From assembly GCF_000025945.1 (NCBI RefSeq), contig NC_006138.1:1140001-1172000 (forward strand): a stretch of DNA of 32,000 nt, given 5' to 3'. The DNA comes from Desulfotalea psychrophila LSv54 (lineage in GTDB: Bacteria; Desulfobacterota; Desulfobulbia; Desulfobulbales; Desulfocapsaceae). The notes under the pieces were generated by a model that was not told the origin of the DNA, did not search any database, and saw only the letters and a program-made list of their open reading frames with translations. Position numbers and translations under genes: made by a program. This document shows, piece by piece, positions 1,170-32,000 of this stretch (position 1 is the stretch's first letter; each line of letters starts with the position of its first letter).

Positions 1170-1661
1170 ATGTCTTTGAAAAAGTGTTCTACAATGATTT
1201 TTGGTTGCGGCAATATAACCATGGGGGATGATGGTTTTGGTCCCGCTGTGATTGATGAGTTGCATGCTCATTATGAATTGCCCGAGGGGGTACAGGCCAT
1301 CGATGCGGATACCGGTATTCGCGAGTATCTTTTTGATTATCTTCTCTCTGAAGAGGATCGGCCTGATCGTATAATTGTCTTAGATGCAGTTGATTTCCCT
1401 GATAGAAATCCTGGCGAGGTGTTCTATATCGCGCCCGATAGCATTCCTTCCCAAAAGATTCATGACTTTTCGCTTCATCAATTCCCTACAGTAAATATGT
1501 TATTAGAGTTGGAACAGTATACAGGAATGGAAATAAAGATATTGGCAGCCCAAATAGAGTGTATTCCGAAAGAAATTGCTCCTGGGCTGTCGGAACCAAT
1601 GTCAAAAGCTGTTCCTGCGGCATGTGAGATGATCTCACAAATTCTTTTAGAAAAAAGCTAA
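1170..1661 (+). CDS. NiFe-hydrogenase maturation endopeptidase (HybD/HycI/FrhD family)
   Basis: N-terminal FGCGNITMGDDGFGPAV matches the GxGNxxxxDDGxG signature of hydrogenase C-terminal processing proteases. Size is about 160 aa. It is the first gene of the hydrogenase operon, with AAGGTAGGG upstream of the ATG. Confidence 0.85.
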   Translation: MSLKKCSTMIFGCGNITMGDDGFGPAVIDELHAHYELPEGVQAIDADTGIREYLFDYLLSEEDRPDRIIVLDAVDFPDRNPGEVFYIAPDSIPSQKIHDFSLHQFPTVNMLLELEQYTGMEIKILAAQIECIPKEIAPGLSEPMSKAVPAACEMISQILLEKS

Positions 1662-1676
1662 ATGAGGTGACCTTTT

Positions 1677-3164
1677 ATGAAGTATGAATTTAAAGTCAGC
1701 GAAATAGCAGAGGAATTTGGTGTTCATTCGACGACCATAAAAAATTGGATTAAATCCGGTTCTCTTTCTGCAAAGGAAGGGCCTGGATCCAAATATCTTA
1801 TGGAGTTTAGTGACTATCAAGACTTTTGCGATCGGTTTGGAGTTGAACCAAGTGTTCGACCTCTGAACCATGTACACAAGGATCCGTGTACTATTCAACA
1901 GGAAGCACAACCTATACTTGAGCCGATGACGCTTGATGGTAAAAAGAGTGCGCTTGCAGTTGATCCATCATGGGCGTCATCCTGTCTAACCTGCGGCACC
2001 TGTGCTGCCGCCTGCCCTATTGCTGGTGTCGATGGGCTTGATCCACGTAAGATAGTGCGCATGGCAGTTTTGGGTATGGATGAGGAGTTGATAAATTCGA
2101 CCTGGCCATGGAAGTGTACCATGTGTGGCAAGTGCGAGGAGTCCTGTCCTGCAGATATTCAAATTACAGCCCTCATAAGAAAAATTCGCGGAGCCCGTGA
2201 AAGAGATCTTGTTCCAGGTCCTATTCACAAGGGTGTGATGATGTGTCTTGAGCGTGGTAACAACCTTGGTATTCCAAAGGATGACTTTGTCTTCCTTCTT
2301 GAAGAGCTTGGTGAAGAGCTTGCTGAGGATTGCTGTCCTGGTTTTGTAACTCCCGTTGAGGTTGAAGGCGCTCGGGTGATGGTTACCGTGAACTCCAAAG
2401 AACCCTTTGGTGAGCCCGATGATATGAAGTGGTGGTGGAAGATTTTTTATGCCGCGGGAGAGTCCTGGACTATTCCATCTGAGCATTGGGAAGGTGTTAA
2501 CTGGGGACTGTTTTCCGGTGACGATGAGTCACAAAAAAAGATTGTTGGTCGACTCGTAAATAATATGAGACGGCTCAAGTGTAAGGTACTGTTGCTACCC
2601 GAGTGAGGCCATGCATATTTCGCGACCCGGTCTGGGTTGCTCAAATGGTTTCCTGAAGCACTTGAAGAATTTAAGATTGTTACAGTGTTTGATCTCCTCC
2701 TCGAGTATCTCCACGAAGGAAAAATTAAGCTTGATAAAGAGCTTCATCGCAATATTCCAACCGCATATCACGATCCCTGTAACTATGGTCGTAAGTCCCT
2801 GAAGGCTTTTGGACAGGCATATTTTGAAGAGGGGCGTGAAGTAGCAAGTGCCTGTTGTGATGATCTTCGCGAGTTGAATCCAAATAGAAACGGTGCATAC
2901 TGTTGTGGTGCTGGTGGCGGTACATGGGCCTTACCGTATAGTGAAGAGCGTATTTATTATGGTCGAACCAAGGCACGACAGATTGAAGAGTCCGGGGCAA
3001 AGCTTGTTGTAGCTCCATGTCATAACTGTCGCGATCAGATTATGAAGTCCCTGAAAAAAGAGTATAGCCTTGATATTGAGGTGAAGTATCTTTGGGAACT
3101 CATTGCTGATTCTTTGATTATGCCAGGTAAGGATAAGGCAGAGCCAGTTAAAGAGCATTACTAA
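1677..3164 (+). CDS. HTH (excisionase/MerR-like) - HdrC-like (2x[4Fe-4S]) - HdrB-like (CCG domain) fusion, selenoprotein with UGA-Sec at 2604-2606
   Basis: ORF-track pieces 1677..2606 and 2637..3164 are in the same frame (both coordinates are 0 mod 3), and the only stop between them is TGA 2604. The joined reading is ...KVLLLPE-U-GHAYFATRSGLLKWFPE.... N-terminus: KVSEIAEEFGVHSTTIKNWIKSGSL (HTH). Middle: CLTCGTCAAACP and CTMCGKCEESCP. C-terminus: HDPCNYGR, CCGAGGG, APCHNCRDQ (CCG domain). GAGGTGA SD lies 6 nt before the ATG. Confidence 0.75.
2618..2645 (+). promoter_or_regulatory. SECIS-like hairpin downstream of UGA 2604
   Basis: UUU-c-GCGACCC[GGUCU]GGGUUGC-uc-AAA. The core stem is 7 bp with one G.U pair. 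The apical loop GGUCU starts 25 nt after the U of the UGA and resembles the GGUC loop I recall from E. coli fdhF SECIS. Confidence 0.55.
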
Positions 3165-3269
3165 AGTATGCATATCTATTTGGGCCTTTTGGAGCCAAAT
3201 ATTGACCAGGAATGATCTGTAAGATATTTACAGACTATCTATATTATTAATCGAGAGGAGACACCTGTC

Positions 3270-6200
3270 ATGCTGGACAAGAAGAAGGTTGGGTCGGTAA
3301 TGATTGTGGGAGGTGGAGTAACGGGCATGCAGTCAGCCCTTGATCTCGCTGATGCCGGATATTTCGTCTACCTGATTGAAAAATCAGGTGCTATCGGCGG
3401 AGCCATGGCTCAGTTGGATAAAACTTTTCCTACCAACGATTGCTCGATGTGAATTATCGCGCCTAAATTGGTTGAGTGCGGTCGGCACTTAAATATAAAG
3501 TTGATGACTCTCAGTGAAGTAACTAATATCGCAGGTTCTGCGGGTGACTTTACTGTAACTGTAAAAGAATCTCCACGTTATGTGGATATGGATAAATGTA
3601 TTGCCTGTGGTGCATGTACTGATAAATGTCCGAAGAAGGTCGATAGCGAGTATGACGAAAAGACCGGAAAGCGTAAGGCCATTTTTGTAAAGTATGCCCA
3701 GGCGGTACCACTTAAGTATCAAATTGATCCTCTGAACTGTCTGCGTCTTACCGCCATGCGTAATGGTAAGGAAAAACTTCCCTGTGGATTTTGTGAGCAG
3801 GTTTGTGACGCTGGCGCTATTAACTATAACGATACCGAAAAGACTCATGAGTTGAACGTAGGTGCTGTTGTTTTGGCTCCTGGCTTTGAGTCCCATGATC
3901 CCACCGGAGATGGTGTTTGGGGTTATGGCGTATATCCAAACGTTATTACCGCCATGCAACTGGAGAGATATCTCTCTGCCTCTGGGCCAACCGAGGGCCA
4001 TATAGTTCGTCCTTCCGATGGACAGAAAGCGCGAAAAATAGCATTTTTGCAATGTGTTGGCTCTCGTGATCAGAATCTCTGTGATAATGGTTACTGCTCT
4101 TCTGTCTGTTGTATGTATGCGATAAAAGAAGCTGTTATGGCCAAGGAACATGTAGCAGGGCTTGAAACAGACATCTTCTATATGGACATGCGTACCCATG
4201 GCAAAGAGTTTGATAAGTACATGGAGAAAGCCAAAGAGAAATCAGGCGTACGTTTCGTCCGATCTCGGGTAAATGGCGTTGAACCTCAGGGTGAGGCCGG
4301 TGATCTTCGTTTGAAGTATATGAACGAAAATGGTCATCAAATAGAAGAGTGTTATGACATGGTTGTCCTCTCTGTGGGCCTTCAAACTCCAAAGCATGTG
4401 TTGGAGCTTGCCAAGACTGCGGGTATTGAGATCACTAAGGATAACTTTGCCAAAACGCCAGATTTTGCTCCGGTCCAAACCTCTCGTGAGGGTGTTTTTA
4501 CCTGTGGTGCCTTTGCCGGTCCTAAGGATATTCCTCAGTCTGTTGTTGAGGGTTCAGCGGCAGCTGCAGCGGTTGCTGAACTGCTTGCCCCATCCCGTAA
4601 CCAGTTTACCCACTCGGTAACCTGGCCAGCAGAGCGTGATATTCGTGAGGAAGAGCCGAAGGTTGGTGTCTTTATTTGTCATTGTGGTTCTAACATTGCC
4701 GGTGTGGTTGATGTGGCAGCGGTTGAAGAGTATGCCGCAACCCTTCCTCATGTGGCCTATGTTGAGAGAAATCTCTTCTCCTGTTCTCAGGATGCTCAGG
4801 AAAAAATTGCGGCAACCATTAAGGAACAGGGTCTTAACCGTATTGTTATTGCCGCCTGTACGCCACGAACCCATGAGCCTCTGTTTCGTGAGACTCTGAA
4901 GGCAGCAGGGCTGAATGAATACCTCGTTGAGATGGCTAATATTAGAAACCATGACTCCTGGGTTCATTCCGATAACCCTAAAATGGCAACGATTAAGGCC
5001 AAGGATCTGATACGGATGGCTGCTGCCAAGGTAGTCTTTGGTGAGTCTCTTAAGCCTATCTCTGTACCCATTAACCAGACAGCTCTGATTATCGGTGGTG
5101 GTGTAGCTGGAATGACTTCTGCCCTGAATCTTGCCGAGCAGGGTTTTAATGTTAATCTTGTGGAAAAAAGCGATACCCTTGGTGGTGCTGCTTTGAAGAT
5201 TAAGCATACCTGGTCCGGTGAAGATGTTGCCTCTCAGGTGGCGACCCTTGTCGATAAGATCACCTGGAACGACAAGGTTACCGTTTTCAAAGAATCTGAA
5301 GTTGTTGCATCCGAAGGTTTTGTCGGTAACTTCAAGTCAACCATTCTCCATGGCGGTGAAGATTACAACGTTATCAAGCACGGTGTTGGTATTGTGGCAA
5401 TTGGTGGAGTCGAGTACAAGCCAAACGAGTACGGTTACGGTGAAATTGCCGGGGTAAAGACCAGTACTGAGTTTGATAATACTCCCCTCAGCCCGTCTGC
5501 CAAGACCTTTGTCTTCATTCAATGTGTTGGTTCCCGAGAGGGAGACAATATGTACTGCTCTAAGGTTTGCTGTACCCATTCTGTGCAGTCTGCCATTGAG
5601 CTGAAGGAAGCTGATCCGGCGCGTAATGTTTATATTCTCTATCGTGAGATGCGTACCTACGGTCAGCGTGAGGCATTGTATCAAAAGGCTCGTAAACTTG
5701 GTGTTATATTTATCAATTACGAGAGTCACGGTAAACCTGTGGTAAGTACGGTTGATGGTGCTATTCGAGTGGATGTTTGGGATCATGTCTTGAACTGTCC
5801 GCTGAAGATTATGGCAGATAATTTGATCCTGGCTACAGCCGTTCGGCCAAGTACTGATGCCGGAGCTATCTCTAAGCTGTACAAGGTGCCTGTTGATGCC
5901 GATGGCTTTTTTCTTGAGGCCCATGCCAAGTTGCGTCCCGTTGATTTTTCAACGGATGGAATGTATGTCGCAGGTATGGCCCATTATCCCAAGCCTATTG
6001 AAGAGTCTGTGGCTCAGGCACTTGCCGCAGCTGCCCGGGCGGCAACGGTTCTCTCTAAGACCGAGGTAACACTTGATGCTGTGAAGGCCACCGTTGATCC
6101 CGACTTTTGTGATGGCTGTGCCCTCTGTGTGGATGTTTGCCCATACGGTGCCATTACCCTTGGTTCCCGTTCGGATGATCTGCCTAGTCGTATTATCAGC

Positions 6201-6326
6201 GTTAATGAGGCGAAGTGTAAAGGCTGTGGCTTATGTCAGGCGACATGTCCTAAGAGAGGCGTCTATGTTGCTGGATTTACCATGCAACAGATAAGCAGTC
6301 AGATTGCTGCCGCTCTTGAGGTCTAG
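3270..6326 (+). CDS. hdrA: Heterodisulfide reductase subunit A-like flavoprotein, tandem (double) HdrA of about 1018 aa, selenoprotein with UGA-Sec at 3450-3452
   Basis: Pieces 3270..3452 and 3468..6326 share a frame. The joined reading is [23 protein letters not shown], which matches the HdrA FPTxDCSMCI motif with U in place of C. There are two GxGxxG FAD folds: [10 protein letters not shown] near 3300 and [10 protein letters not shown] near 5090. Other elements are an inserted ferredoxin ([12 protein letters not shown]), the internal motif [17 protein letters not shown] (the HdrA N-domain type) and a C-terminal 2x[4Fe-4S] ([24 protein letters not shown]). GAGAGGAGA SD. Confidence 0.85.
3472..3492 (+). 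promoter_or_regulatory. SECIS-like hairpin downstream of UGA 3450
   Basis: UUGAGUGC[GGUCG]GCACUUAA forms an 8-bp stem with one G.U pair. The loop starts 30 nt after the U of the UGA. Confidence 0.5.
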
Positions 6327-6377
6327 TCGTTACCTGTACATAAAATGAACATGAGGATTAAATAAGGAGTAGATCAC

Positions 6378-6800
6378 ATGAGTTTTGAGCCTAAAATCAT
6401 TGCATTTTGTTGCAACTGGTGCTCATACGCCGCAGCTGATCTGGCGGGAGTGTCCAGGATGCAGTATCCGCATAATGTACGGATTATCCGTGTTATGTGC
6501 TCAGGTATGGTTCATCCTGAATTTGTTATGGATGCCCTGCACCAGGGTGCAGACGGTGTCATGGTACTTGGCTGACACCTCGGTGAATGTCATTACCTGG
6601 ATGGTAATTATATAGCAGAGACCCGTTCTGATATGATCACGAGCATGTTGGAAGACATGGGATATGAGAAAGAACGATATGGTGTGAGTTGGGTATCTTC
6701 AGCCGAGCCGGATAAGTTTGTTAAGGCTGTGACTGAGATGACTGCCCGTATCAAGAAACTTGGACCTGTCCAAACTGAAAGCCCCGCTCAGGCGGTGTAA
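6378..6800 (+). CDS. mvhD: MvhD/VhuD-type hydrogenase delta subunit ([2Fe-2S] electron-transfer protein), selenoprotein with UGA-Sec at 6573-6575
   Basis: [36 protein letters not shown]...[22 protein letters not shown]. This is the MvhD signature GCHxGxCHY with U replacing the first Cys. The frame continues with no other stop to TAA 6798-6800. AAGGAG SD. Confidence 0.85.
6592..6608 (+). promoter_or_regulatory. SECIS-like hairpin downstream of UGA 6573
   Basis: AUUACC[UGGAU]GGUAAU forms a perfect 6-bp stem. The first loop G is 26 nt after the U of the UGA. Confidence 0.45.
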
Positions 6801-6810
6801 AGGAGGCGAT

Positions 6811-7752
6811 ATGGGTGTGAAAACAGCTATGGAATGGTTGAGCTCATGTTCTGGATGCGAAATCGCTATCCTGAATATAGGTGAAGATCTTATTCCAATT
6901 ATTACTGAAGCGTTGGATATTGTTCATGCACCGGTACTTATGGATCATAAGTACTTTGGACAGACCGGTGAGGGCCTGACCCTGGAAATACCAGAGGCAA
7001 CTATTGGTATTGTTAGCGGTGGCGTAGCCAATGAAGAGCATATCGAAGTGCTTGAGGAGATGAGAAAGAAATGTACTATTCTTATCGCCCTTGGAACCTG
7101 TGCAACCCATGGTGGTATCCCCGCTCTGATGAATGGGCAGGATCGAGCCCAGAGTTGGAAAGAGATTTATCAAACAAAGACCACCGATCCCGGGGGAGAA
7201 GTTCCCAATGTGGAAGTTCCTGCTCCTCTTGACCGTGTTTATGCCTGTGATGAGAAGGTAAAGATTGATCTGCAGTTGCCAGGATGTCCTCCAAATCCTG
7301 CCCATATTGCCGAGGTGATCTTTTCTCTTCTTGAGGACCGACCACCGGTTCTTCCTGGTAAGAGTGTTTGTGATACCTGCCCGACCAAGCGTGAGGGTAA
7401 GGGTGATGTAAGTAAGCTGAGACGTTTTCTTACAAACGCTGAATTTGAGCCAGGCGAACCTATTGATGAAATGCGCTGTCTGCTTGAGCAGGGATACCTC
7501 TGTATGGGGCCGGTAACTGCTGCAGGCTGTGCAAGAAATGGTGCTCCTAGCTGTATTGCTGCTCGCGTTCCCTGTCGTGGTTGCTTTGGGCCTGTTCGTG
7601 GCGCTGGTAATCAAATGTTGGATATGATGAACGCATTGGCAAGTAATGGAATTGATTGTAGTTCTGTTATTGATCGTCGCTCTATGTTACGCTTTTCAGG
7701 TGCGCATGGAATGCTACGGCCTGTAAAAAAAATGGTTGTTAAGGAGGACTAA
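6811..7752 (+). CDS. mvhG: Group-3c NiFe hydrogenase small subunit (MvhG-like)
   Basis: Start chosen at ATG 6811, just after AGGAGG (6801-6806) and 10 nt after the mvhD stop. The sequence MGVKTAMEWLSSCSGCEIAILN is the small-subunit proximal-cluster motif, with further Cys clusters (GTCATHGG, CPPNP, CRGCFGP). Confidence 0.85.
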   Translation: MGVKTAMEWLSSCSGCEIAILNIGEDLIPIITEALDIVHAPVLMDHKYFGQTGEGLTLEIPEATIGIVSGGVANEEHIEVLEEMRKKCTILIALGTCATHGGIPALMNGQDRAQSWKEIYQTKTTDPGGEVPNVEVPAPLDRVYACDEKVKIDLQLPGCPPNPAHIAEVIFSLLEDRPPVLPGKSVCDTCPTKREGKGDVSKLRRFLTNAEFEPGEPIDEMRCLLEQGYLCMGPVTAAGCARNGAPSCIAARVPCRGCFGPVRGAGNQMLDMMNALASNGIDCSSVIDRRSMLRFSGAHGMLRPVKKMVVKED

Positions 7753-7753
7753 G

Positions 7754-9202
7754 ATGGGAAAGGTATTAACGATTGCACCTGTTACCCGTATTGAGGGTCA
7801 CGCAAAAATTGCCATTCATTTAGATGATACGGGCAATGTGGAAAATGCATTTTTGCATATTCAGTCCCTGCGCGGATTTGAGAAGTTTATTGAGGGGCGT
7901 CCTGCAGAGGAAGTGCCTCGTCTGGTAAATAGAATTTGTGGTATCTGTCCTTGGATGCATCACATTGCCTCCAATAAGGCAGTTGATCGTTGTTTCGATG
8001 TAACCCCTACGGCAACCGGTTATAAGTTGCGTGAGTTGTGTCAGGTTTTGGCTCATGTCAACGATAAGATTCTTCACTTCTTCTTTTTGGCGGCCCCGGA
8101 TTTTGTTCTTGGACCAGATGCAGATCACTCTGTACGTAATGTTATGGGCGTTGTTAAGGCGGCTCCGGAACTTGCGTCCAAGGTTGTGAAGATGCGTCAG
8201 CTTGGTCAGATGATGTTGGAGAAATTTGCTGGCAAGGCTATTCACCCAATTGCCGGTGTTGTCGGTGGTTTTTCCAAGCCAATGGTTGAAGAGGAACGTA
8301 AGGAGTTGCTGGAAGGTGCCCGTACTCTGCTTGACTTCTCCACCTATGCCCTTGATTTTGCTATTAACAATGTATTTTCAAAGTACATGGACGTTATTGG
8401 TGAGCTTGGCGTTATTAAGACTGGTTTCCTCGGTACAGTTGATCGTCAGGATGGATCACTTCGTCTCTTCGATGGTAACCTGCGGATGATGAAGGCAGAT
8501 GGTAGCTTTGAAGAGTTTCAAAACCGTGATTATGCTGACCATATTGGTGAGCATACGGTGCCTTGGGGCTATTCTAAAATGCCATATGCCAAGTTTTGGA
8601 ATGAGGGCTTTGATATGAGCCTTGGTGCTCCAAAGGGTATTTATCGTTCTAATACCCTGGCCCGTATCAATGTTTGTGACAAGATCTCCACTCCAAAGGC
8701 CCAGGCAGCACTTGAAGCCTTCCGTGAGTTATTTGGTCGTCCTGCCCAACAGACTCTGCTTTATCATTATGCTCGCCTGATTGAGATGGTTTATGCCTGT
8801 GAGCGAACTATTGAGCTCCTCGAGTGGGATGGTATTACCGATCCTCATGTTCGTGCGGAGGTTACCCCGCGGGCAGGTCGTGGTGTGGGTGTGGTTGAGG
8901 CCCCTCGTGGTACTCTTATTCATGATTACACAACCGATGATGATGGCTGTGTTACCAGTGCAAATCTTATTGTGGGTACCACCCACAATATTGCGCCGAT
9001 GAATATGTCTGTGAGACAGGCGGCAAGTTCACTCATCAAAGATGGAAAATATGATGAGGGCATTCTTAACAGGGTAGAGATGGCTGTTCGGGCCTATGAC
9101 CCCTGAATGTCTTGCGCTACCCACCGCCTGGATGGCGGTCTTCCAGTAACTGTATCTATTATGGATAAAGAAGGTGTAGAAATTGACAGAATTGTCAAAT
9201 AA
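7754..9202 (+). CDS. mvhA: [NiFeSe] hydrogenase large subunit (MvhA/VhuA-like) with UGA-Sec at 9104-9106
   Basis: Start at ATG 7754 after AAGGAGGA. The N-terminal Ni-ligand motif is RICGICPWMH (RxCGxCxxxH). The track ORF ends ...VRAYDP at TGA 9104. The same frame continues MSCATHRLDGGLPVTVSIMDKEGVEIDRIVK to TAA 9200-9202, giving DP-U-MSC-ATH, the DPCxxCxxH C-terminal Ni-ligand motif with Sec at the first Cys. Confidence 0.9.
9123..9139 (+). promoter_or_regulatory. SECIS-like hairpin downstream of UGA 9104
   Basis: ACCGCC[UGGAU]GGCGGU forms a perfect 6-bp stem. The first loop G is 26 nt after the U of the UGA. Loop and offset are the same as in the mvhD hairpin. Confidence 0.5.
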
Positions 9203-9402: not shown

Positions 9403-10509
9403 GTGGACGTGATAAACCAACTTCCAAGCCCAGAAGCATTGCTTGAAGAGCTGCATCGTGTTGTAAGTAAGCCCATTCGTTTAATGGTTGTTTGTGGTAC
9501 CCATAACCGAGCCATCCTTCGGTATGGAATCAGAGAAGAGTTACCCGATTTTATCGAACTTGTTGCTGGACCTGGTTGTAGCGTCTGTGTGATGCCGACG
9601 GGACATGTTGACGCCTTTGTTAAGGTTGCCCGCCAGCCGGACGTTATTACTGCCACCTGTGAAGACCTGTTGAAGGTACGCGGGAGCAAGGAGTCTTTGG
9701 CCGATGTCCTCAATGAGGGAGTGCACCGTGTTGAAATTATCTCTTCTCCTCGTCAGGCCCTTGAGCTGGCCTATGTAGAGGAGGATAAGATTGTTGTTTA
9801 TCCTGCCGTGGGTTTTGAGGCTACGGCTCCCAGTATTGCCGAGACTATTTTAGAGGCGGCCCAAAATGGGGTGGGAAATTTTTGTGTTATTCCTTCCATT
9901 CGCCTGCTTCCACCAACCATTGATGCCCTCCTCCTTGATCCCCAGTTGAGTATTCAGGGATTGCTCTGTTCAGATCATATCAATACCATTTCTGACACCG
10001 AAGCCTATGCCGATCTTGCCCGTAAACATAGCCTGAGCTGTTGTATTGCAGGTTTTGAAAAGGCAGAGATTCTACAGGGGATTCTCAGCATGGTTAAGCA
10101 GATCCATCGTGGTGAATCCATGGTGGATGCCAGTGGTGCCATGGTTTATTCAATGGAAGAGACAGCCCGGGCCCGGAGGGTGGTGGAAGAGGTTTTCTTT
10201 CCAACGGAAACGGCTTGGAGAGGTTTGGGCTCTATTGCTGAGAGTGGTTTTGTTATCCGTGATGAGTTGGCCCTCTATGACGCCACTAAACGTTTTAATG
10301 TTCGTTTTGCTGAGGGTACGGATCAATGCATGTGTCACTGTAATGAAATTATTTCTGGACGCGCCCTGCCGCCTGACTGTCCTGCCTTTGGTATGGCCTG
10401 TACCCTGCAGAATCCCGTGGGGCCCTGTATGATTTCCAATGAGGGCATTTGTGCTGCATACTTTAAGTATAAGTTGGAGTCTTCCAGATTTTCCCGTTTA
10501 GATGTCTAG
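9403..10509 (+). CDS. hypD: Hydrogenase maturation factor HypD
   Basis: VCGTHNRA (the CGxH motif), GPGCSVCVMP (GPGCPVCV motif) and a C-terminal Cys-rich region. GTG start at 9403; GTG 9409 has better spacing to the AGGAG at 9395-9399. Confidence 0.9.
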   Translation: MDVINQLPSPEALLEELHRVVSKPIRLMVVCGTHNRAILRYGIREELPDFIELVAGPGCSVCVMPTGHVDAFVKVARQPDVITATCEDLLKVRGSKESLADVLNEGVHRVEIISSPRQALELAYVEEDKIVVYPAVGFEATAPSIAETILEAAQNGVGNFCVIPSIRLLPPTIDALLLDPQLSIQGLLCSDHINTISDTEAYADLARKHSLSCCIAGFEKAEILQGILSMVKQIHRGESMVDASGAMVYSMEETARARRVVEEVFFPTETAWRGLGSIAESGFVIRDELALYDATKRFNVRFAEGTDQCMCHCNEIISGRALPPDCPAFGMACTLQNPVGPCMISNEGICAAYFKYKLESSRFSRLDV

Positions 10510-10918: not shown

Positions 10919-11413
10919 ATGTCTGCCAGATATCAAGATAAAAAGTACCACTATATAGACAGATCCTGTTGTTGCCTGTTGGCTGTGGTTTTTTTCTATG
11001 CAGGCATCCCCAAGTTGTTCCATCCAGTCGATTTTGCCCTGACCATTGAGGCCTATGGCATGTTGCCCGACATGCTGGTCATACCTGTTTCCTATCTCCT
11101 GCCCCTTTTTGAAGTTGTTTTAGGTCTTGCCCTCTTGCAGGGGCGGGTGGAGGGGGTATGGGCTGCCCTTTTTCTGCTCATCTCTTTTATTTTGATTTTA
11201 AGCTACGCCCTCTATCTCGGGCTTGATATTGACTGCGGTTGCTTTGGCCCCGAAGATCCGGAGCAGGCTGCCTTTTCGGGCATACGTACAGCCCTGATCC
11301 GTGATTTTCTCCTTCTTATTCCTGTCATTATCCCCCTTACCCTGCGAAAAGCATATGCGGAGCTTTGGCTGCCGCTTTTTTTAAATCCATTATTCCTTAA
11401 GGAGAAGAAATGA
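10919..11413 (+). CDS. MauE/DoxX-family integral membrane protein
   Basis: It has four hydrophobic segments and the motif DIDCGCFG, typical of MauE-type proteins. The stop overlaps the next start (ATGA). Confidence 0.65.
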   Translation: MSARYQDKKYHYIDRSCCCLLAVVFFYAGIPKLFHPVDFALTIEAYGMLPDMLVIPVSYLLPLFEVVLGLALLQGRVEGVWAALFLLISFILILSYALYLGLDIDCGCFGPEDPEQAAFSGIRTALIRDFLLLIPVIIPLTLRKAYAELWLPLFLNPLFLKEKK

Positions 11414-11934
11414 ATATTAAAGTATCGGCATTGGTTTTTGCCCTCTGTCTGGCAGTTGCAGGAAACTGTTTTGCCTTTGGTAGCTCTAAGTTTAAAAAAG
11501 AGGTAGAAAAGGAAACAGGGGCGGTCAAGCTTGTGCGTGAGGTTCAGCGTGGTGGTTACGATCTGCTCACTACAGATGAGTTGAAGAAGATGATTGATGG
11601 GGGCCAGAAGATGGTCATCGTTGATACCATGCCCTATGAGTCCAGTTATAAAAAGGCCCATCTTCCCGGTGCTGTCCAGTTTCTCTTTCCTATTCCAGAT
11701 ATGAATATCTGGGATAGCGCCGAGACAGCCGGTAAGACAGAGGCGGATTATAAGGCCCTCTTAGGTAGTGATCTGGATGCTACTATTGTGGTTTACTGTG
11801 GCTTTGTTAAGTGTACTCGCAGTCATAATGGTGCTGTCTGGGCGAAAAAATTGGGTTATAAAAACGTCTATCGCTATTCAGGTGGTATCTATGCCTGGAA
11901 GGGTGCCGGTTGTTCTGTGGCCAAGGTTAAGTAG
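11410..11934 (+). CDS. Secreted rhodanese-domain sulfurtransferase-like protein
   Basis: Signal peptide MNIKVSALVFALCLAVAGNCFA. The rhodanese fold ends in VVYCGFVKCTRSHNGAVWAKKLGYKNVYRYSGGIYAWKGAG (active-site Cys loop). Confidence 0.7.
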   Translation: MNIKVSALVFALCLAVAGNCFAFGSSKFKKEVEKETGAVKLVREVQRGGYDLLTTDELKKMIDGGQKMVIVDTMPYESSYKKAHLPGAVQFLFPIPDMNIWDSAETAGKTEADYKALLGSDLDATIVVYCGFVKCTRSHNGAVWAKKLGYKNVYRYSGGIYAWKGAGCSVAKVK

Positions 11935-12764: not shown

Positions 12765-14915
12765 CTATTTTCTGCGCTTGGCCAGCATCTCAGCGATGTG
12801 GCGTACCTCAATATTAAGACCGTGCTTTTTCGCACCACCACGGATCTGCATAACGCAACCAGGGCAGTCTGTGACGAGAATATCGGCCTTTGTCTCCTGG
12901 ATGTTTTTTAGCTTGTTTTCAAGAAGCTGACCGGAAATTTTAGGAAACTTAGCAGAGTAGGTGCCACCAAAGCCACAGCAGACGTCTTCCTCGGCGCATG
13001 GCACATAGTCGAGCCCCGCCTTAACCATAAGTTCGCGTGGGGCATCTTTCACCCCAAGGCCACGACAGAGATGGCAGGGGGCATGGTAGGTGACCTTCTC
13101 ACCCTTGGTGGTGATGAAATCTTCCCTCTTCATCTCGATAACATCGTTCATAAAGGAGCTGTAATCAATGAACTTGTCGGTGATCTTATCCACCCGGCTG
13201 GCGTAGATAGGATCGTCGCCAATAATCTTCTTGTAGTTGTGCTTAAAGTGAGAGACACAGGAGGCACACATACTGAGGATATAATCGCAGTCACACTTCT
13301 CAAAGGCTTCCAGATTCTGAATAGCAATCTCTTTTGCAGCCTGCATCTCGCCGAGCATCTGCATGGGCAGGCCGCAGCAGGTCTGCTCCATTGGGAACTC
13401 TACGGAAACCCCCTTGTCTCTAAAGCTCTCAATGGTGGCAACGGATTGTTCCGGATAGACAAAATCCTGAACACAGCCGGCAAAGAAGGCAATCTTAATC
13501 TTGGGCTTAGCAGGGTTTTTACCGATTCTCTGCCAGATATCTCTGAAAGGTTCCTTGGCCACGGTGGGCAGGGCCCTGAAGTCATGGCTGGGGAAGAAGA
13601 CCATGGGCAGATGACGCATGAAGCCGTCTTTGCCCTTGAGAGGTTTTTGGGCGGTCTGGGCGATGCGGAGGAACTTGTGGAAGAGTTTACGGTTCTTCAG
13701 CATCTTGCCGGCCAGGGCAGAGTAGAGCGGATGTCCTGCCTTGTCCTGAATTCTGATGTGAATCTCTTTGATCAGGGCTGGCAGGTCAATGCCGGCTGCA
13801 CATACCTCCTTACAGGCGCCACAGTTGATACAGTTCTGGACCAGATTTTTGGCCTTCTCTTCACCGTGGAAGAAATAGGTGAGGATGAGACCGATGGCAC
13901 CGATATAGATATGGCCCATCTTGTGTCCGCCAACCATTCGGTATACGGGGCAGACATTGGCACAGGCCCCGCAGCGAACACAGGCGAGTACCTGAGAGAA
14001 CTGAGGGTCTTTGGCCATGGCACTACGACCGTTATCGAGGAAGATATAGTGCATCTTCTTGCCGGTGTCGGTGCTGGCACATTCATTGGCACCGGTTACC
14101 CAGGTGACATAGGAGGTGAGACCCTGGCCGGTGGCATTACGGGGGAGGGCCTTGAGGATGCGCAGGGCATCGTGCATATTTGCGGTAAGCTTTTCAAGTC
14201 CCATCAGGGCAACGTGAACGCGTGGCACGGTACTTGCCATTCGGGCGTTACCTTCGTTGGTGACAATGCCGATGGTACCGGTTTCAGCAATGGCAAAGTT
14301 ACCACCGGAAAAACCCATATCGGCCTTGACGAATACGCCACGAAGTTCCTCACGGGCCACCCTGACAAGGGTTGTAATATCATCATTTTGCTTCTTGCCA
14401 GTAACATCACTGAAGAGATCACGCACCTGGTAGCGAGAGAGGTGGATGGCAGGCACAACCATGTGGCTGGGGCCCTCGTGGCGGAGCTGGATGATGTATT
14501 CGCCAAGATCACTCTCTGTTACCTCAAAACCCTCGTCTTCGAGGTAGTGAGTAAGGAGGGTTTCCTCGGAGGTCATGGACTTAGCCTTAACCACCGACTG
14601 GCAATTTTCATCTCTGGCGATCCGGGCAATCAGCTCATTTGCTGCCTGGGCATCCTTTGCCAGGTGAACAACGGCACCGTTTTTCTCGGCGTTCTTTTTA
14701 AACTGGGCGTAGAGCGCGTCAAGGTTTTTTACAGCCTCTTTTTTGGCGCAGGCGATTTCGCCTATGAGCTTTTTGTCATCGATGCCGGCAAATGCCTTGT
14801 GTCTGCTCTCCTTATAGGAGATGGCAAATTTGTCCATCATGCTTCTGAGAAAGTCATCGTTAAGGGCTTCGTCGAGCTCTGTTCTGTACTGGGATAGGTT
14901 TTTAGCAGTTTGCAT
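12765..14915 (-). CDS. Fused LutB-LutA (LldF-LldE) lactate-utilisation iron-sulfur protein, 716 aa
   Basis: Start at ATG 14915 (MQTAKNLSQYR) after GGAGGAAG. LUD/DUF162 region: SDLGEYIIQLRHEGPSHMVVPAIH. Two ferredoxin motifs: CVRCGACANVCP and CINCGACKEVC. Then two CCG domains: FFAGCVQDF, CCGLP, YHAPCHLCRG, CCGFGGTYS, DCPGCVMQ. This is the same architecture I recall for the roughly 717-aa Desulfovibrio LldEF-type protein. Confidence 0.85.
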   Translation of the reverse strand: MQTAKNLSQYRTELDEALNDDFLRSMMDKFAISYKESRHKAFAGIDDKKLIGEIACAKKEAVKNLDALYAQFKKNAEKNGAVVHLAKDAQAANELIARIARDENCQSVVKAKSMTSEETLLTHYLEDEGFEVTESDLGEYIIQLRHEGPSHMVVPAIHLSRYQVRDLFSDVTGKKQNDDITTLVRVAREELRGVFVKADMGFSGGNFAIAETGTIGIVTNEGNARMASTVPRVHVALMGLEKLTANMHDALRILKALPRNATGQGLTSYVTWVTGANECASTDTGKKMHYIFLDNGRSAMAKDPQFSQVLACVRCGACANVCPVYRMVGGHKMGHIYIGAIGLILTYFFHGEEKAKNLVQNCINCGACKEVCAAGIDLPALIKEIHIRIQDKAGHPLYSALAGKMLKNRKLFHKFLRIAQTAQKPLKGKDGFMRHLPMVFFPSHDFRALPTVAKEPFRDIWQRIGKNPAKPKIKIAFFAGCVQDFVYPEQSVATIESFRDKGVSVEFPMEQTCCGLPMQMLGEMQAAKEIAIQNLEAFEKCDCDYILSMCASCVSHFKHNYKKIIGDDPIYASRVDKITDKFIDYSSFMNDVIEMKREDFITTKGEKVTYHAPCHLCRGLGVKDAPRELMVKAGLDYVPCAEEDVCCGFGGTYSAKFPKISGQLLENKLKNIQETKADILVTDCPGCVMQIRGGAKKHGLNIEVRHIAEMLAKRRK

Positions 14916-15508
14916 TACACTTCCTCCAAAAGAAGAATATGGAGATAGAGGGGGCCATGGGCGCCAACGGTAAGAACACGCTCGACATCTGCGGTACGAC
15001 TGGGTCCGGTGATGAAGGCTGTGTAGTCTGCCTTTTTCATCCAACCCGTGAGGATGTCTTCAATATCGTAGGCGTCAGCAACAATTTTTGCTACGGGGAG
15101 AACGGCAATATGTGCTTCGCTTACCATGGTGGCAAGGCGTAACTCTTCGTTTGGGCAGTTGAGAACAATTGTGCCTGTGTCGATAATACCGTAGTCGGCA
15201 AAGGTGAATCCGATGTCAACGCCACCGAGGTAGGAGCGCATATTGTTCTTGATAAGCTTAAAGTCCTTAGCATCAGCTAGGCCTTTAAGGCTTGCAAACT
15301 GGTCATCGCTCAGGGTCGGGGCAGCAATAATTTTACCTGGTTTATTGGAAAGATCCTTCGGGCATCCGGGAAAAGGCTTACGCTCTTCCTTTTCAGCACA
15401 GAGGTCTACAGCATATTTATATGCTTCTTCCATTGAAGAGACCCTGGCCACTGAGGCATGAACTGCCTCAGCCCTGTCGCTGAAAAGTTGTATGTCTTTT
15501 TCTGTCAT
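14915..15508 (-). CDS. lutC: LutC/LldG-type lactate-utilisation protein (LUD domain)
   Basis: 197 aa, with a LUD-domain-like sequence. The stop overlaps the downstream ATG (TAATG), which implies translational coupling to lutBA. Confidence 0.75.
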   Translation of the reverse strand: MTEKDIQLFSDRAEAVHASVARVSSMEEAYKYAVDLCAEKEERKPFPGCPKDLSNKPGKIIAAPTLSDDQFASLKGLADAKDFKLIKNNMRSYLGGVDIGFTFADYGIIDTGTIVLNCPNEELRLATMVSEAHIAVLPVAKIVADAYDIEDILTGWMKKADYTAFITGPSRTADVERVLTVGAHGPLYLHILLLEEV

Positions 15509-15632
15509 TTTTGTTTCCTTGTACGCGAGATAATTTTTTGTTGCGGCGATACCTGACCCTATCCTATCTTTAGATGAGGCCTGTTTTTCGTCCCTGGATC
15601 AGAGTGTCTTTTGAAGGCCGCACTGATTCGGG

Positions 15633-15660
15633 AAAACTCCCGCTAAACTGATAGCGGGAG
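15633..15660 (-). terminator. Hairpin plus short U-run between glcF-like and lutC (attenuator or partial terminator)
   Basis: Perfect 9-bp stem CTCCCGCTA/TAGCGGGAG with a 6-nt loop, followed on the - strand by TTTT. It begins 9 nt after the glcF-like stop. Confidence 0.4.
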
Positions 15661-15668
15661 GGGTACTG

Positions 15669-16964
15669 CTATGGTAATGATTCTGCGTAAATTTCTATAA
15701 CGTGACGCACCTCGACTCCTCCACCCGATTGGGAGAGGACATCGGCAAGTTGCATCATGCATGCCGGGCAACCGGTACTGACCACATCTGCCTTAACCGC
15801 CCTTATATTGTCGGCCTTATGCATACCTATCTGCTTTGAAAGGTCGTAGTGGAAGAGATTAAAGGTGCCACCATTTCCACAGCACTTATTGGCATCGGTC
15901 ATTTCCTTGAACTCATAGGACGGATTCAACTTGAGCAGGGTCCGTGGTTGGCTGGTAACCTTAAGGGACTTGGCCAGATGGCATGGGTCATGGTAGGTGA
16001 CGACCTTGCCGCCGACTGGTTTTTCAGCAGGCTCCTTAACACCGAGGACATTAACAATAAATTCATTGATATCCATGGCCTTGGCTGCAAGACGGGTTAC
16101 CTTTTCTTTGAAGATGGCATCTTCATCGTCAATCATCTTGATCCACAGCTCTTTTATGGTATCTGTACAGGTGCCGCAGGGGGTGATGATATAGTCAAAA
16201 TCTTTGTTGTCAAAGGCCTGAACATTTTGTCTCATCAGGGCAATAAAGGCCTTGGTCTCTCCGGAGGCGAGGGTGGGGATGCCACAGCAGGCCTGACCTT
16301 TTGGTAAAAATACGCCAACACCATGATGCTTAAAGATCTTCATGGCAGCATGACCGATATGGGGGCTCATCTTGTCCACAACGCAACCGGGGAAGAAGGC
16401 AATCTTCACCCCGCTTTTGCCCGCCGGGGTATCCAGCTGTGGATAATCCAGTCGAAAGGGTCGCTTGGCCAGAGAGCCGAAGTGTCTTTTGCCCAGTAAC
16501 GGAGTGAGGAGGCTACAGCTGTTTGTGGCTGCAGCCGCATCTTCCTTATGAACAAAAATGTTTTGAAACTGTGCACTTACCAAGGTAAGAAAATCAAAGA
16601 GTTTTGGGCGGGTTAAAAACCCTCGGAATATGATCTTCTTCAGCGGATGGAGACCCTTGTAGGTGGTGACAATAACGCGGGCATTGATAAAGATGTCCAT
16701 GATATGTACGCCACTGGGGCAGGCCGCTGCACAGGAGCCACAGAGGAGGCATTTGGTCAGTTTCTCATTCACCTGATCTGAATCCTTGATCATTTCACGA
16801 GCAAGTTGCTCAAGTAATGCGATCTTGCCCCGAGTAACATCACCTTCATGCATGGTTTCAGCAAAGACTGGACAGACCGCTTGGCACATGCCGCATTTCA
16901 TGCAGGAGGCCATCTGGTCATCGAGTTCCATGAGCTGATCGGCTAATTTTTTAAGATCAGACAT
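15669..16964 (-). CDS. GlcF-like Fe-S subunit (2x[4Fe-4S] plus 2 CCG domains) of a lactate/glycolate dehydrogenase
   Basis: CMKCGMCQAVCP and CLLCGSCAAACP, then FFPGCVVD, CCGIP, YHDPCHLAKS, CCGNGGTF, GCPACMMQ. Confidence 0.85.
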   Translation of the reverse strand: MSDLKKLADQLMELDDQMASCMKCGMCQAVCPVFAETMHEGDVTRGKIALLEQLAREMIKDSDQVNEKLTKCLLCGSCAAACPSGVHIMDIFINARVIVTTYKGLHPLKKIIFRGFLTRPKLFDFLTLVSAQFQNIFVHKEDAAAATNSCSLLTPLLGKRHFGSLAKRPFRLDYPQLDTPAGKSGVKIAFFPGCVVDKMSPHIGHAAMKIFKHHGVGVFLPKGQACCGIPTLASGETKAFIALMRQNVQAFDNKDFDYIITPCGTCTDTIKELWIKMIDDEDAIFKEKVTRLAAKAMDINEFIVNVLGVKEPAEKPVGGKVVTYHDPCHLAKSLKVTSQPRTLLKLNPSYEFKEMTDANKCCGNGGTFNLFHYDLSKQIGMHKADNIRAVKADVVSTGCPACMMQLADVLSQSGGGVEVRHVIEIYAESLP

Positions 16965-16969
16965 TTTTA

Positions 16970-18352
16970 CTAACCTCCAATGATCTTGCCGGGGTTTAAG
17001 ATTCCCTTGGGATCAATAGCTTTTTTCATGTTTAGTGAGTAATCAAGAGTAGCTCTTGAGGTTTCTTTTTCCATCCATTTAGACTTAGCGATACCGATGC
17101 CGTGCTCTCCAGAGAGGGTGCCTTTTAGAGAAAGGGCAACGTCAAATATCTCATCAATTGCCTCTTCAACTCGGGCAAATTCCTTTTTATCCCGGCGATC
17201 ACAGAGAATGGTTGGGTGAAGATTGCCGTCACCGGCGTGGCCAAAGGTGCCTATGGAAAGGTTATGCTTTTTCGCAATATTATTAACCCCACGAATCATT
17301 GCAGGAATCTGGCTACGGGGAACCGTAGCATCTTCAAGTACTGTTGTTGGGCGGGCTCGGGCCAGAGCGGGGAGGGCATTACGACGTGCAGTCCAGAGGC
17401 TTTCTCGTTCCGCTGCAGTTTCTGCCGCCTGAACATAGGTAGCACCGATTTTTTTACAGAGCTTAACAATCTTTTCTGCATCTTCGGCAACTTCTGCCGG
17501 ATGGCCATCTACCTCGATGAGCAAAATTCCCTGGGCATCGGTTGGTAGACCGGCCTTGGTGTAGTCTTCAACATAACGAATAACAGCGTTATCGAGTAAC
17601 TCAAGGGTACAGGGAACGATGTGGCTTGCAATAATTCCAGCCACAGCTTCTGAGGCCTTATCAATATCATCGAAAACAGCCATCATAGCCTTGGAGGCCT
17701 TTGGGGGTGGGACAAGCTTAAGGATGATGTTGCTGAAGATGCCGAGGGTGCCCTCGGAGGCAATCATTAAACCGGTGAGATTATATCCTGTTACGCATTT
17801 GACTGTGCGGGAACCGGATTTGATGAGATCGCCATTGACGTCATAGAAATCTATACCCATTACATAGTCTTTGGTGACACCGTATTTGAGACCCCGGAGT
17901 CCACCAGCATTCTCAGCGACGTTACCGGCCAGGGTGGAGACGGCTTGACTGCCTGGATCAGGCGGGTAAAAGAGATTACGTTTTGCCACCTCGTTGGCAA
18001 ACTGAGCGGTGACTACACCGGGCTCTACTACGGCATAGAGATCCTCTTCGTTAATCTCAAGTATCTTGTTCAGACCATTGGTGAGAAGAACGACTCCGCC
18101 GGGATGGGGAATTGTTCCACCCGAGAGGTTGGTGCCGGCACCACGTACGGTGACGGGAAGGCCAAGATCATTACAGAGCCTGGTTACGGGACCTATTTCC
18201 TCGGTGGTGCAGGGCTTGACAACCAGAGCAGGAACCGACGGGGTAAGTACTGCCGAGTCGTATGAGTAGGTATGGAGATCGCTCTCCGTGTGCAACACGT
18301 TTTTTGCACCAACGATTGCCGCAAACTCTTTGGCTAATTTGGAATTGGACAT
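16970..18352 (-). CDS. FAD-linked oxidase, GlcD-like (D-lactate dehydrogenase catalytic subunit)
   Basis: FAD_binding_4-type N-terminus (VVKPCTTEEIGPVTRLCNDLGLPVTVRGAGTNLSGG) and a C-terminal GlcD-like region (GTLSGEHGIGIAK, DPKGILNPGK). AGGAGAAAAG SD. Confidence 0.9.
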   Translation of the reverse strand: MSNSKLAKEFAAIVGAKNVLHTESDLHTYSYDSAVLTPSVPALVVKPCTTEEIGPVTRLCNDLGLPVTVRGAGTNLSGGTIPHPGGVVLLTNGLNKILEINEEDLYAVVEPGVVTAQFANEVAKRNLFYPPDPGSQAVSTLAGNVAENAGGLRGLKYGVTKDYVMGIDFYDVNGDLIKSGSRTVKCVTGYNLTGLMIASEGTLGIFSNIILKLVPPPKASKAMMAVFDDIDKASEAVAGIIASHIVPCTLELLDNAVIRYVEDYTKAGLPTDAQGILLIEVDGHPAEVAEDAEKIVKLCKKIGATYVQAAETAAERESLWTARRNALPALARARPTTVLEDATVPRSQIPAMIRGVNNIAKKHNLSIGTFGHAGDGNLHPTILCDRRDKKEFARVEEAIDEIFDVALSLKGTLSGEHGIGIAKSKWMEKETSRATLDYSLNMKKAIDPKGILNPGKIIGG

Positions 18353-18434
18353 CTTTTCTCCTGTAAAATATATGATAATAATAACGTTGCCGGCAGGGAT
18401 AGGTGGCTAATCCTGCCGGTTGGTGAGTTTTTAA

Positions 18435-20147: not shown

Positions 20148-20298
20148 GTTTTCTCCTTGACTAGTAATCGTGAACTGTCTGTTACAGTGAAGCATTTTCA
20201 CCAGGATAAAAGCCTGTGTATTCTTTAAGGTGCCAATAAAAGAGAATGCTTTTCTGCCTGTCACTCTGTGTAAATATAGAGAGCTTATGCTCTATCTT

Positions 20299-31941: not shown

Positions 31942-32000
31942 TGGTGCACCCGAAGGGATTCGAACCCCTGACACCCAGGTTCGAAGCCTGGTGCTCTATC
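31942..32000 (-). tRNA. tRNA-Arg (anticodon UCG), 5' part lies beyond the window edge
   Basis: The - strand reads ...GATAGAGCA CCAGG CTTCGAA CCTGG GTGTC AGGGG TTCGAAT CCCTT CGGGTGC A CCA. This gives the anticodon stem-loop with TCG at positions 34-36, a T-arm with TTCGAAT, the acceptor 3' half and an encoded CCA. Confidence 0.85.

Follow-up and report, generated by a model that had tools for sequence, protein, structure and literature searches.

A stretch of 32,000 nucleotides (nt) from the genome of Desulfotalea psychrophila LSv54 (NC_006138.1, positions 1,140,001 to 1,172,000 of the forward strand; hereafter the window, in whose coordinates all positions are given) contains a five-gene operon for heterodisulfide reductase (Hdr)-like and Mvh-type hydrogenase proteins, in which four genes are interrupted by an in-frame TGA. 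The operon has the order glpC-hdrA-frhD(mvhD)-frhG(mvhG)-frhA(mvhA), with glpC referred to below as gene 1. We consider it very likely that the four UGAs are selenocysteine (Sec, U) codons with bacterial Sec insertion sequences (SECIS) for SelB, and that the products are a cytoplasmic [NiFeSe] hydrogenase of the Mvh/Vhu type and, coupled with it, an HdrA and an HdrD-like Fe-S protein.

This four-selenoprotein Hdr/Mvh operon has been known since 2006, when, according to the operon passages of PMC1794560, Zhang, Romero, Salinas and Gladyshev described a five-gene glpC-hdrA-frhD-frhG-frhA operon in D. psychrophila and Syntrophobacter fumaroxidans and named GlpC, HdrA, FrhD and FrhA as its selenoproteins. 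The corresponding passages of a 2026 review (PMC13188914) speak of a "four-selenoprotein-gene operon", give "UGH" as the motif of the Fe-S oxidoreductase-like (GlpC) protein and call the functional link between the subunits unclear. As far as these passages go, the operon in the window agrees with the 2006 description in its gene order, its four Sec genes, its Sec-free small subunit, the "UGH" of gene 1 and the bacterial SECIS inside the coding sequence. The density of Sec codons, which a first-pass annotation of this DNA had singled out as exceptional, is thus a published hallmark of the operon in both sources. Gene 1 showed the features of the "UGH" family: the motif PE-U-GH-AY, ferredoxin and CCG domains, and a position directly upstream of hdrA-mvhDGA. 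The five genes, followed by the two flanking hydrogenase maturation genes, are:

1677..3164, + strand: gene 1, "GlpC"/HdrD-like Fe-S oxidoreductase selenoprotein, 495 amino acids (aa), U310 (Pfam, PDB sequence matches, hhalign)
3270..6326, + strand: hdrA, tandem HdrA-like flavoprotein, 1018 aa, U61 (Pfam; PDB 5odc_A E=5e-119, 9sfi_A E=3.5e-115)
6378..6800, + strand: mvhD (FlpD family), connector subunit, 140 aa, U66 (PF02662 E=2.8e-54; 8rvu_F and 5odc_D E∼1e-46)
6811..7752, + strand: mvhG, [NiFe] hydrogenase small subunit (Pfam PF01058; NCBIfam VhuG 208 bits, below cut-off)
7754..9202, + strand: mvhA, Mvh/Vhu-type [NiFeSe] large subunit, 482 aa, U451 (9sfi_g, 9sw2_F and 5odc_F E<=1e-110)
1170..1661, + strand: hycI, HycI-type hydrogenase maturation endopeptidase, directly 5' of the operon (Pfam PF01750 E=2e-22)
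9403..10509, + strand: hypD, [NiFe] hydrogenase maturation gene, downstream neighbor (Pfam PF01924 E=4e-119)

The putative Sec codons are:

2604..2606, + strand: gene 1, residue 310, LLLPE-U-GHAY (majority-Cys column; TGA in 67 of 80 related loci)
3450..3452, + strand: HdrA, residue 61 (Cys in 5odc_A and 8rvu_a; "X", Sec197, in 9sfi_A)
6573..6575, + strand: MvhD, residue 66, VMVLG-U-HLGECHY (Cys in 8rvu_F, 5odc_D and 8rvv_F)
9104..9106, + strand: MvhA, residue 451, first position of the DPCxxCxxH Ni-ligand motif (Cys in 9sw2_F and 5odc_F)

All four positions and frames were as first described: the fragments of each pair share one reading frame, with no other stop between them. The accompanying statement that the downstream fragments begin only at a forced non-ATG codon applied to gene 1 and hdrA, in which these fragments had neither an ATG nor an obvious ribosome-binding site and the next in-frame starts were TTG codons (+10 and +5 codons, respectively). 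It did not apply to mvhD and mvhA, as an ATG opens the downstream fragment of both (at 6633, and at 9107 right after the TGA). Nearly all of HdrA is encoded after its TGA, as are the CxxH of MvhA and the CCG domain of gene 1 that is complete. No in-frame TGA was present in mvhG (6811-7752).

Conservation of the four Sec positions

In HdrA, U61 aligned with a Cys of M. thermolithotrophicus HdrA (FPTNDCSICILAPKM, 5odc_A) and of 8rvu_a, and also with the residue given as "X" in 9sfi_A (FPTDDCAMXILAPKM), which in M. maripaludis is Sec197, paired with a Cys and located between cluster A3 and the flavin adenine dinucleotide (FAD) (PMC13518236). The first module of the protein carries the pair C58-x-x-U61. 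The alignment with 5odc_A spanned 431 residues including the FPTxDC-x-x-(C/U) motif, and the Pfam FAD and Fer4 domains by which an HdrA is recognized were found. A second FAD module starts at ∼aa 600 (∼nt 5070); the CVGSR...CC motif is repeated there and the CxxU pair is absent. The scores stayed below the NCBIfam equivalog cut-offs (HdrA2 NF040770, 947 of 1100 bits; HdrA NF041778, 677 of 1400 bits), and the hdrA product is a bacterial relative of HdrA in which the module is duplicated; it does not count as an equivalog of the enzyme of methanogens.

In MvhD, which scored 182.8 bits against PF02662 (gathering cut-off 22.3) and falls within that family, U66 aligned with the first Cys of GGC-H(L/I)GDC-HY in 8rvu_F, 5odc_D and 8rvv_F. 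MvhA contained both Ni-Fe motifs (RICGIC at aa 60-65 and DP-U-MSCATH at aa 449-457). Its U451 aligned with the Cys of RAYDPCLSCATH in 9sw2_F and 5odc_F, that is, the first Cys of the C-terminal DPCLSCATH, and would occupy the classical [NiFeSe] position. The NCBIfam VhuA model matched aa 1-429 (480 of 800 bits) and the VhuU selenopeptide model aa 434-459 (37.6 of 70 bits), both below cut-off; MvhA is predicted from these matches to be the equivalent of VhuA and VhuU fused. As every NCBIfam equivalog model scored below its cut-off, the labels VhuA/D/G, HdrA2, HmcF, TmcB and DsrK were not assigned.

Each U had been expected to align with an invariant Cys. In HdrA, MvhD and MvhA it aligned with Cys in the solved structures, but the Cys of gene 1 is not invariant: among 116 full-length homologues, the Sec column was Cys in 90 (78%), Ser in 16 (14%) and another residue in 10 (9%).

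Related loci were collected by a scan of species-representative genomes, which gave a comparative set of 80 loci (325 matching loci in all), and the Sec positions were mapped by tblastn. All 80 loci came from Desulfobulbales (Desulfopila, Desulforhopalus, Desulfotalea, Desulfoprunum, Desulfosediminicola, Desulfofustis, Desulfocapsa and many metagenome-assembled genomes, MAGs), and the closest genome locus in the scan was 80% identical in gene 1. The gene order epimerase-hycI-gene1-hdrA-mvhD-mvhG-mvhA-hypD was conserved, with hycI 5' of gene 1 in almost every orthologous locus and hypD downstream in most. A TGA occupied the homologous codon of gene 1 in 67/80, of HdrA in 66/79, of MvhD in 61/72 and of MvhA in 59/59 loci, and amino-acid conservation ran on past the TGAs in the same frame. 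Cultured relatives in which all the Sec positions of the operon are TGA include Desulfopila aestuarii DSM 18488, Desulfosediminicola flagellatus and Desulfoprunum benzoelyticum.

This distribution bears on the possibility that the TGAs reflect faulty sequencing or assembly, or mutations that inactivated the genes and left four pseudogenes. Gene callers do split these genes: four close homologues of gene 1 (P0054, P0107, P0113 and P0117; 82-95% identical) are annotated as fragments of 309-310 aa. However, these end exactly at LLLPE, which indicates that the same TGA cut their annotation short. In 59-67 independent genomes, which come from different species, TGA occupies the equivalent codon, the downstream sequence is conserved in frame, and essential motifs lie after the TGAs. 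Because the same TGA recurs in dozens of species, sequencing error and pseudogenisation are excluded; this explanation, to which we give next to no credence, appears effectively refuted by cross-species sequence conservation.

Hairpins downstream of the TGA codons

A hairpin with a G-containing loop had been reported after each UGA in the first-pass annotation. It was found at all four sites, with the loop 22-27 nt downstream; each loop is 5 nt long and contains GG. The hairpins are:

2622..2640, + strand: gene 1 SECIS hairpin, 7-bp stem, GCGACCC-GGUCU-GGGUUGC; loop 22 nt after the UGA, -10.7 kcal/mol
3472..3492, + strand: hdrA SECIS hairpin, 8-bp stem, UUGAGUGC-GGUCG-GCACUUAA; loop 27 nt after the UGA, -9.2 kcal/mol
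6592..6608, + strand: mvhD SECIS hairpin, 6-bp AU-rich stem, AUUACC-UGGAU-GGUAAU; loop 22 nt after the UGA, -4.7 kcal/mol
9123..9139, + strand: mvhA SECIS hairpin, 6-bp GC-rich stem, ACCGCC-UGGAU-GGCGGU; loop 22 nt after the UGA, -10.5 kcal/mol

The published criteria for a bacterial SECIS (bSECIS), as set out in Fig. 2A of PMC13188914, are a loop of 3-9 nt, a stem of 4-16 bp, a G in the first two loop positions, a spacing of 16-37 nt and a minimum free energy <= -7.5 kcal/mol. The hairpins of gene 1, hdrA and mvhA passed all of these; that of mvhD passed on loop, stem and spacing and was borderline on energy, reaching -7.3 kcal/mol when its lower stem was included (6587-6613). As a background, 134 of the 6137 in-frame codons of the window (∼2.2%) satisfied the same criteria. 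With a stricter hairpin definition, set post hoc, all four TGAs were recovered (4/4); of the Cys codons only 1/83 qualified, and of positions overall 0.6%.

Across the related loci, a hairpin by our own 6-bp definition followed the TGA in 67/68 loci for gene 1, 67/67 for hdrA and 61/61 for mvhD, whereas none was found in loci with Cys or Ser at the position (0/13, 0/13 and 0/11). The hairpins are nearly invariant, and they were assessed by synonymous-site entropy together with the contrast between TGA and non-TGA loci. Entropy at third codon positions inside the hairpins was 0.17 (gene 1), 0.35 (hdrA), 0.04 (mvhD) and 0.30 bits (mvhA), compared with 0.9-1.5 bits outside (gene 1 1.10, mvhD 0.93, mvhA 1.51); in non-TGA loci, the hairpin positions varied like their flanks (1.1-1.5 bits). 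By the published criteria, TGA and non-TGA loci were separated for gene 1 (66/68 vs 0/13) and for hdrA (45/67 vs 1/13); mvhA passed in 60/60 loci and mvhD in 0/61. When the energy cut-off was relaxed to -4.5, mvhD passed in 59/61 TGA and 0/11 non-TGA loci. Selection on the RNA only where the codon is UGA is the signature expected of a SECIS. A divergent locus (L032, 4736-7883; hdrA 48% identical) carries the hairpin GGAGGCC-GGUC-GGUCUCC, with the same architecture and another stem sequence; in its assembly, an NN gap interrupts the region of the mvhD SECIS.

Because U aligns with Cys or Sec, the TGA is conserved (in 59-67 related loci) and the hairpin is conserved only together with the TGA, the comparison of sequences gives strong support to Sec decoding at each of the four TGAs, in line with the original proposal of four Sec codons.

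It has to be weighed against a true stop at each UGA, with the downstream parts made by re-initiation as split subunits like Methanococcus VhuA/VhuU. Such an arrangement would be consistent with the ATGs that follow the TGAs of mvhA (9107, directly) and mvhD (6633), with the match of MvhA residues 434-459 to the model of the separate archaeal VhuU peptide, and with the end of 9sfi_g (VhuA) before this region. The residue that the UGA encodes, however, is the very Cys/Sec that is conserved in each motif; archaeal VhuU has its Sec inside the peptide, and if translation stopped at the UGA this residue would be lost. That the hairpin is conserved only with the TGA fits a SECIS instead, and the downstream fragments of gene 1 and hdrA offer neither an ATG nor an obvious ribosome-binding site. 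Re-initiation is therefore very improbable in our judgment.

Equally improbable is a selenium-free reading, in which UGA is read through or reassigned as Cys, Trp or Gly. TGA is rare as a stop in the window, where it ends 1 of 26 genes (TAG ends 13 and TAA 12). This one case argues against reassignment: the mauE-like gene ends at a TGA (11411-11413) that overlaps the next ATG, and TGA is thus still a stop. In addition, the positions to which the four sites align are specifically those that hold Cys or Sec in known families of selenoproteins, SECIS-type hairpins are conserved together with the TGA, and the Sec-decoding trait is documented for D. psychrophila in the passages of PMC1794560 cited above. 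The scarcity of TGA stops may mean that UGA is avoided as a stop in an organism with many selenoproteins; an approximate count of stop codons over the related loci was confounded by the TGAs that encode Sec.

Several observations weigh against the assignment of a Sec-containing hydrogenase-Hdr operon. Searches with Pfam, ARAGORN and Rfam found no selA, selB, selD or tRNA-Sec within the 32-kb window; ARAGORN reported no tRNA in the window, and the Rfam scan at gathering thresholds returned no SECIS family and one partial tRNA only. The first-pass annotation had suggested folding the 60 nt downstream of each UGA. This gave a hairpin at each site, but single 60-nt folding energies were no better than those of shuffled sequences (z -0.5 to -1.35) and mvhD was weak; since these z-scores are non-significant, thermodynamics alone cannot establish a SECIS, and the other tests were relied on. 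The mvhD hairpin misses the threshold of -7.5 kcal/mol in every species and may represent a weak or atypical bSECIS class. Its upper stem alone gives only -4.7 kcal/mol throughout the species, and still no other of the four hairpins varies so little in sequence. None of the proteins of the window that were scored reached an NCBIfam equivalog cut-off. In ∼22% of full-length homologues of gene 1 the position is Ser or another residue, and this Sec may not be essential. For the electron path described below, the acceptor and the bifurcation step are inferred by homology.

The HdrD-like product of gene 1

The gene 1 product begins with an HTH_17 domain, which is followed by an HdrC-like 2x[4Fe-4S] domain and by two CCG domains. 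The N-terminal one of these (aa ∼215-320, nt 2300-2640) is degenerate and holds U310; the C-terminal one is complete. Its PDB sequence matches were HdrC and EtfD, with no close structure. An AlphaFold model of the closest Cys homologue (P0001, 73% identical to gene 1; pLDDT 80) matched the folds of M. smegmatis EtfD, LutA, HdrB and HdrC. The best NCBIfam models were HmcF (208/750), TmcB (179/735) and DsrK (132/400), all far below cut-off. A true GlpC was rejected (TIGR03379, 37/280 bits; NF008369, 47/278 bits), and "GlpC" is a COG-style label only.

The region around 2604 had been described as an HdrB-like CCG region, which is correct as to the fold and incorrect as to the cluster site. In a profile-profile comparison (hhalign, 98.5% probability) with the GlcF-like protein of the window, which has two canonical CCG domains, the N-terminal CCG domain of gene 1 had U310 at the first Cys of its CxxC, and the other four ligand Cys of this domain were missing across the whole family. 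The C-terminal CCG domain is complete (C368, C409, C410, C448 and C451). An HdrB has two non-cubane [4Fe-4S] clusters and carries five Cys (C...CCG...CxxC) in each of its CCG domains; in gene 1 the N-terminal domain lacks this set. Since four of the five ligand Cys have been lost family-wide, U310 probably acts as a lone redox residue and does not ligate a cluster. By sequence and structural model, gene 1 is predicted to encode an HdrD-type protein in which HdrC and HdrB are fused; one cluster site is intact, and a single Sec/Cys takes the place of the second cluster.

The first 55 aa (nt 1677-1830) form an excisionase/MerR-type HTH_17 domain that is weak but family-wide, with A11, G15, H17, T20, N23 and W24 invariant across the homologues. 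A DNA-binding-type domain is unusual on a soluble Fe-S redox subunit. A term search of the text passages of PMC1794560 and PMC13188914 suggested that the helix-turn-helix (HTH) domain, the degenerate CCG domain and the spread over ∼60 species are not discussed there.

The loci without TGA showed that Sec is lost jointly. In seven of them (L064, L066, L067, L070, L074, L077 and L078), gene 1 has Ser or Cys while HdrA and MvhD have Cys; MvhA is still TGA in all 59 scorable loci. The sole mixed case is L057, with Cys in MvhD only. Six further loci (L058, L059, L060, L063, L068 and L071) are paralogous gene1-hdrA-mvhD modules of the Cys/Ser type, with no hycI and with unrelated neighbors; mvhGA was absent where the contig was long enough, and L068 ends within hdrA, so that only gene 1 and hdrA are visible. 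In four MAGs an all-Sec operon and a Cys/Ser module occur side by side (L035 and L059, L029 and L060, L017 and L063, L006 and L068), pairs that are reminiscent of Methanococcus vhu/vhc.

Electron path, related systems and surrounding genes

The proposed mechanism follows homology with the solved archaeal Mvh/Vhu-Hdr complexes. H2 would be split at the Ni-Fe site, with U451 in place of the first Cys of the C-terminal DPCxxCxxH. The electrons would pass via the MvhG clusters to MvhD, in which U66 replaces the first Cys of GGC-HxGxC, and on to the FAD of HdrA; there, C58-x-x-U61 would form the pair between cluster A3 and FAD, as in M. maripaludis HdrA, and may serve as a selenenylsulfide relay, as proposed for Methanococcus (PMC13518236). 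From HdrA they would reach ferredoxin and gene 1, probably by flavin-based bifurcation, and the one intact CCG-type cluster site and lone U310 of gene 1 may reduce a disulfide or trisulfide. A candidate acceptor is DsrC, the usual candidate in sulfate reducers, which has been suggested as the substrate of related Hdr complexes in these organisms (PMC5947623).

The closest solved systems are the Methanococcus Hdr-Vhu-Fwd complex (9sfi, PMC13518236) and MvhAGD-HdrABC (5odc), in which HdrA, MvhD/VhuD, MvhG/VhuG and MvhA/VhuA+VhuU are homologous to the proteins of the window (E 1e-45 to 1e-124). With Methanococcus, the operon shares the HdrA Sec at an identical CxxU, the hydrogenase Sec as the first residue of DPUxxCxxH, and a Sec/Cys paralogue pair like vhu/vhc. 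It differs in that its SECIS are bacterial and in frame, whereas those of archaea lie in the 3' untranslated region; VhuA and VhuU form one protein; HdrA, at 1018 aa, is a tandem protein and lacks the archaeal N-terminal domain; and HdrBC is replaced by the fused HdrC/HdrB-like protein with one intact CCG site and a Sec. The substrate of the system in the window cannot be the heterodisulfide of coenzymes M and B (CoM-S-S-CoB).

Among bacteria, Desulfobacterium autotrophicum HRM2 has Sec-HdrA1, Sec-HdrD4, Sec-MvhD paralogues and Sec-MvhA2DG (PMC2702500). Compared by description, it likewise combines a cytoplasmic Sec-Mvh hydrogenase clustered with Sec-HdrA, Sec proteins of the HdrD (HdrCB-fusion) and MvhD types, and Sec and Cys paralogues in one genome; it differs in belonging to the Desulfobacteraceae and in a cluster that also holds the periplasmic HysAB. 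HmcF, TmcB, DsrK and M. smegmatis EtfD (9ojn) share with gene 1 the ferredoxin-like 2x[4Fe-4S] domain followed by CCG domains. EtfD was the best structural match of the gene 1 homologue model, and HmcF, TmcB and DsrK were the best NCBIfam matches. Unlike these, gene 1 is soluble and has HTH_17 and a Sec in a cluster-less first CCG domain.

Just downstream of hypD, the region 10919-11934 holds genes for a MauE/DoxX-like membrane protein and for a rhodanese-domain protein, which overlap by ATGA; the rhodanese active-site loop CTRSHNG has Cys, not Sec. A lactate-utilization cluster occupies 12765-20264 on the - strand and comprises a LUD + 4Fe-4S + 2xCCG fusion (LutB/LutA-like), a LutC-like LUD protein, a GlcF-like CCG protein, a GlcD-like FAD oxidase and an L-lactate permease. 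The true start of its 759-aa open reading frame (ORF, 12765-15044) probably lies further in, at the Met of MQTAKNL. At the edge of the window (31945-32000, - strand) lies the 3' part of a tRNA-Arg(UCG) with the anticodon loop CUUCGAA and an encoded CCA end; it was rejected as tRNA-Sec by its UCG anticodon.

A wider proposal seems doubtful to us: that the Sec of gene 1 is the sole survivor of a cluster-less CCG domain, that one-cluster and Se-S chemistry reduces a disulfide or trisulfide, that the HTH domain makes the protein a DNA-binding redox or selenium sensor of the operon, and that three genes form a selenium relay. If true, the one-cluster and Se-S chemistry of gene 1 would be distinct from that of the two-cluster HdrB, and the joint Cys/Ser switch of gene 1, HdrA and MvhD would mark a single selenium-dependent relay, with the hydrogenase always Sec.

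For annotation, the Sec assignment would turn eight ORF fragments into four merged selenoprotein genes. For the biology of the group, it would mean that cytoplasmic H2 oxidation and the Hdr-like relay are selenium-dependent in widespread sulfate- and sulfur-cycling Desulfobulbales, as was recognized in 2006. The window adds comparative detail to this picture: a spread over ∼60 species, coordinated Sec-to-Cys/Ser switching and a CCG domain that appears to be cluster-less.

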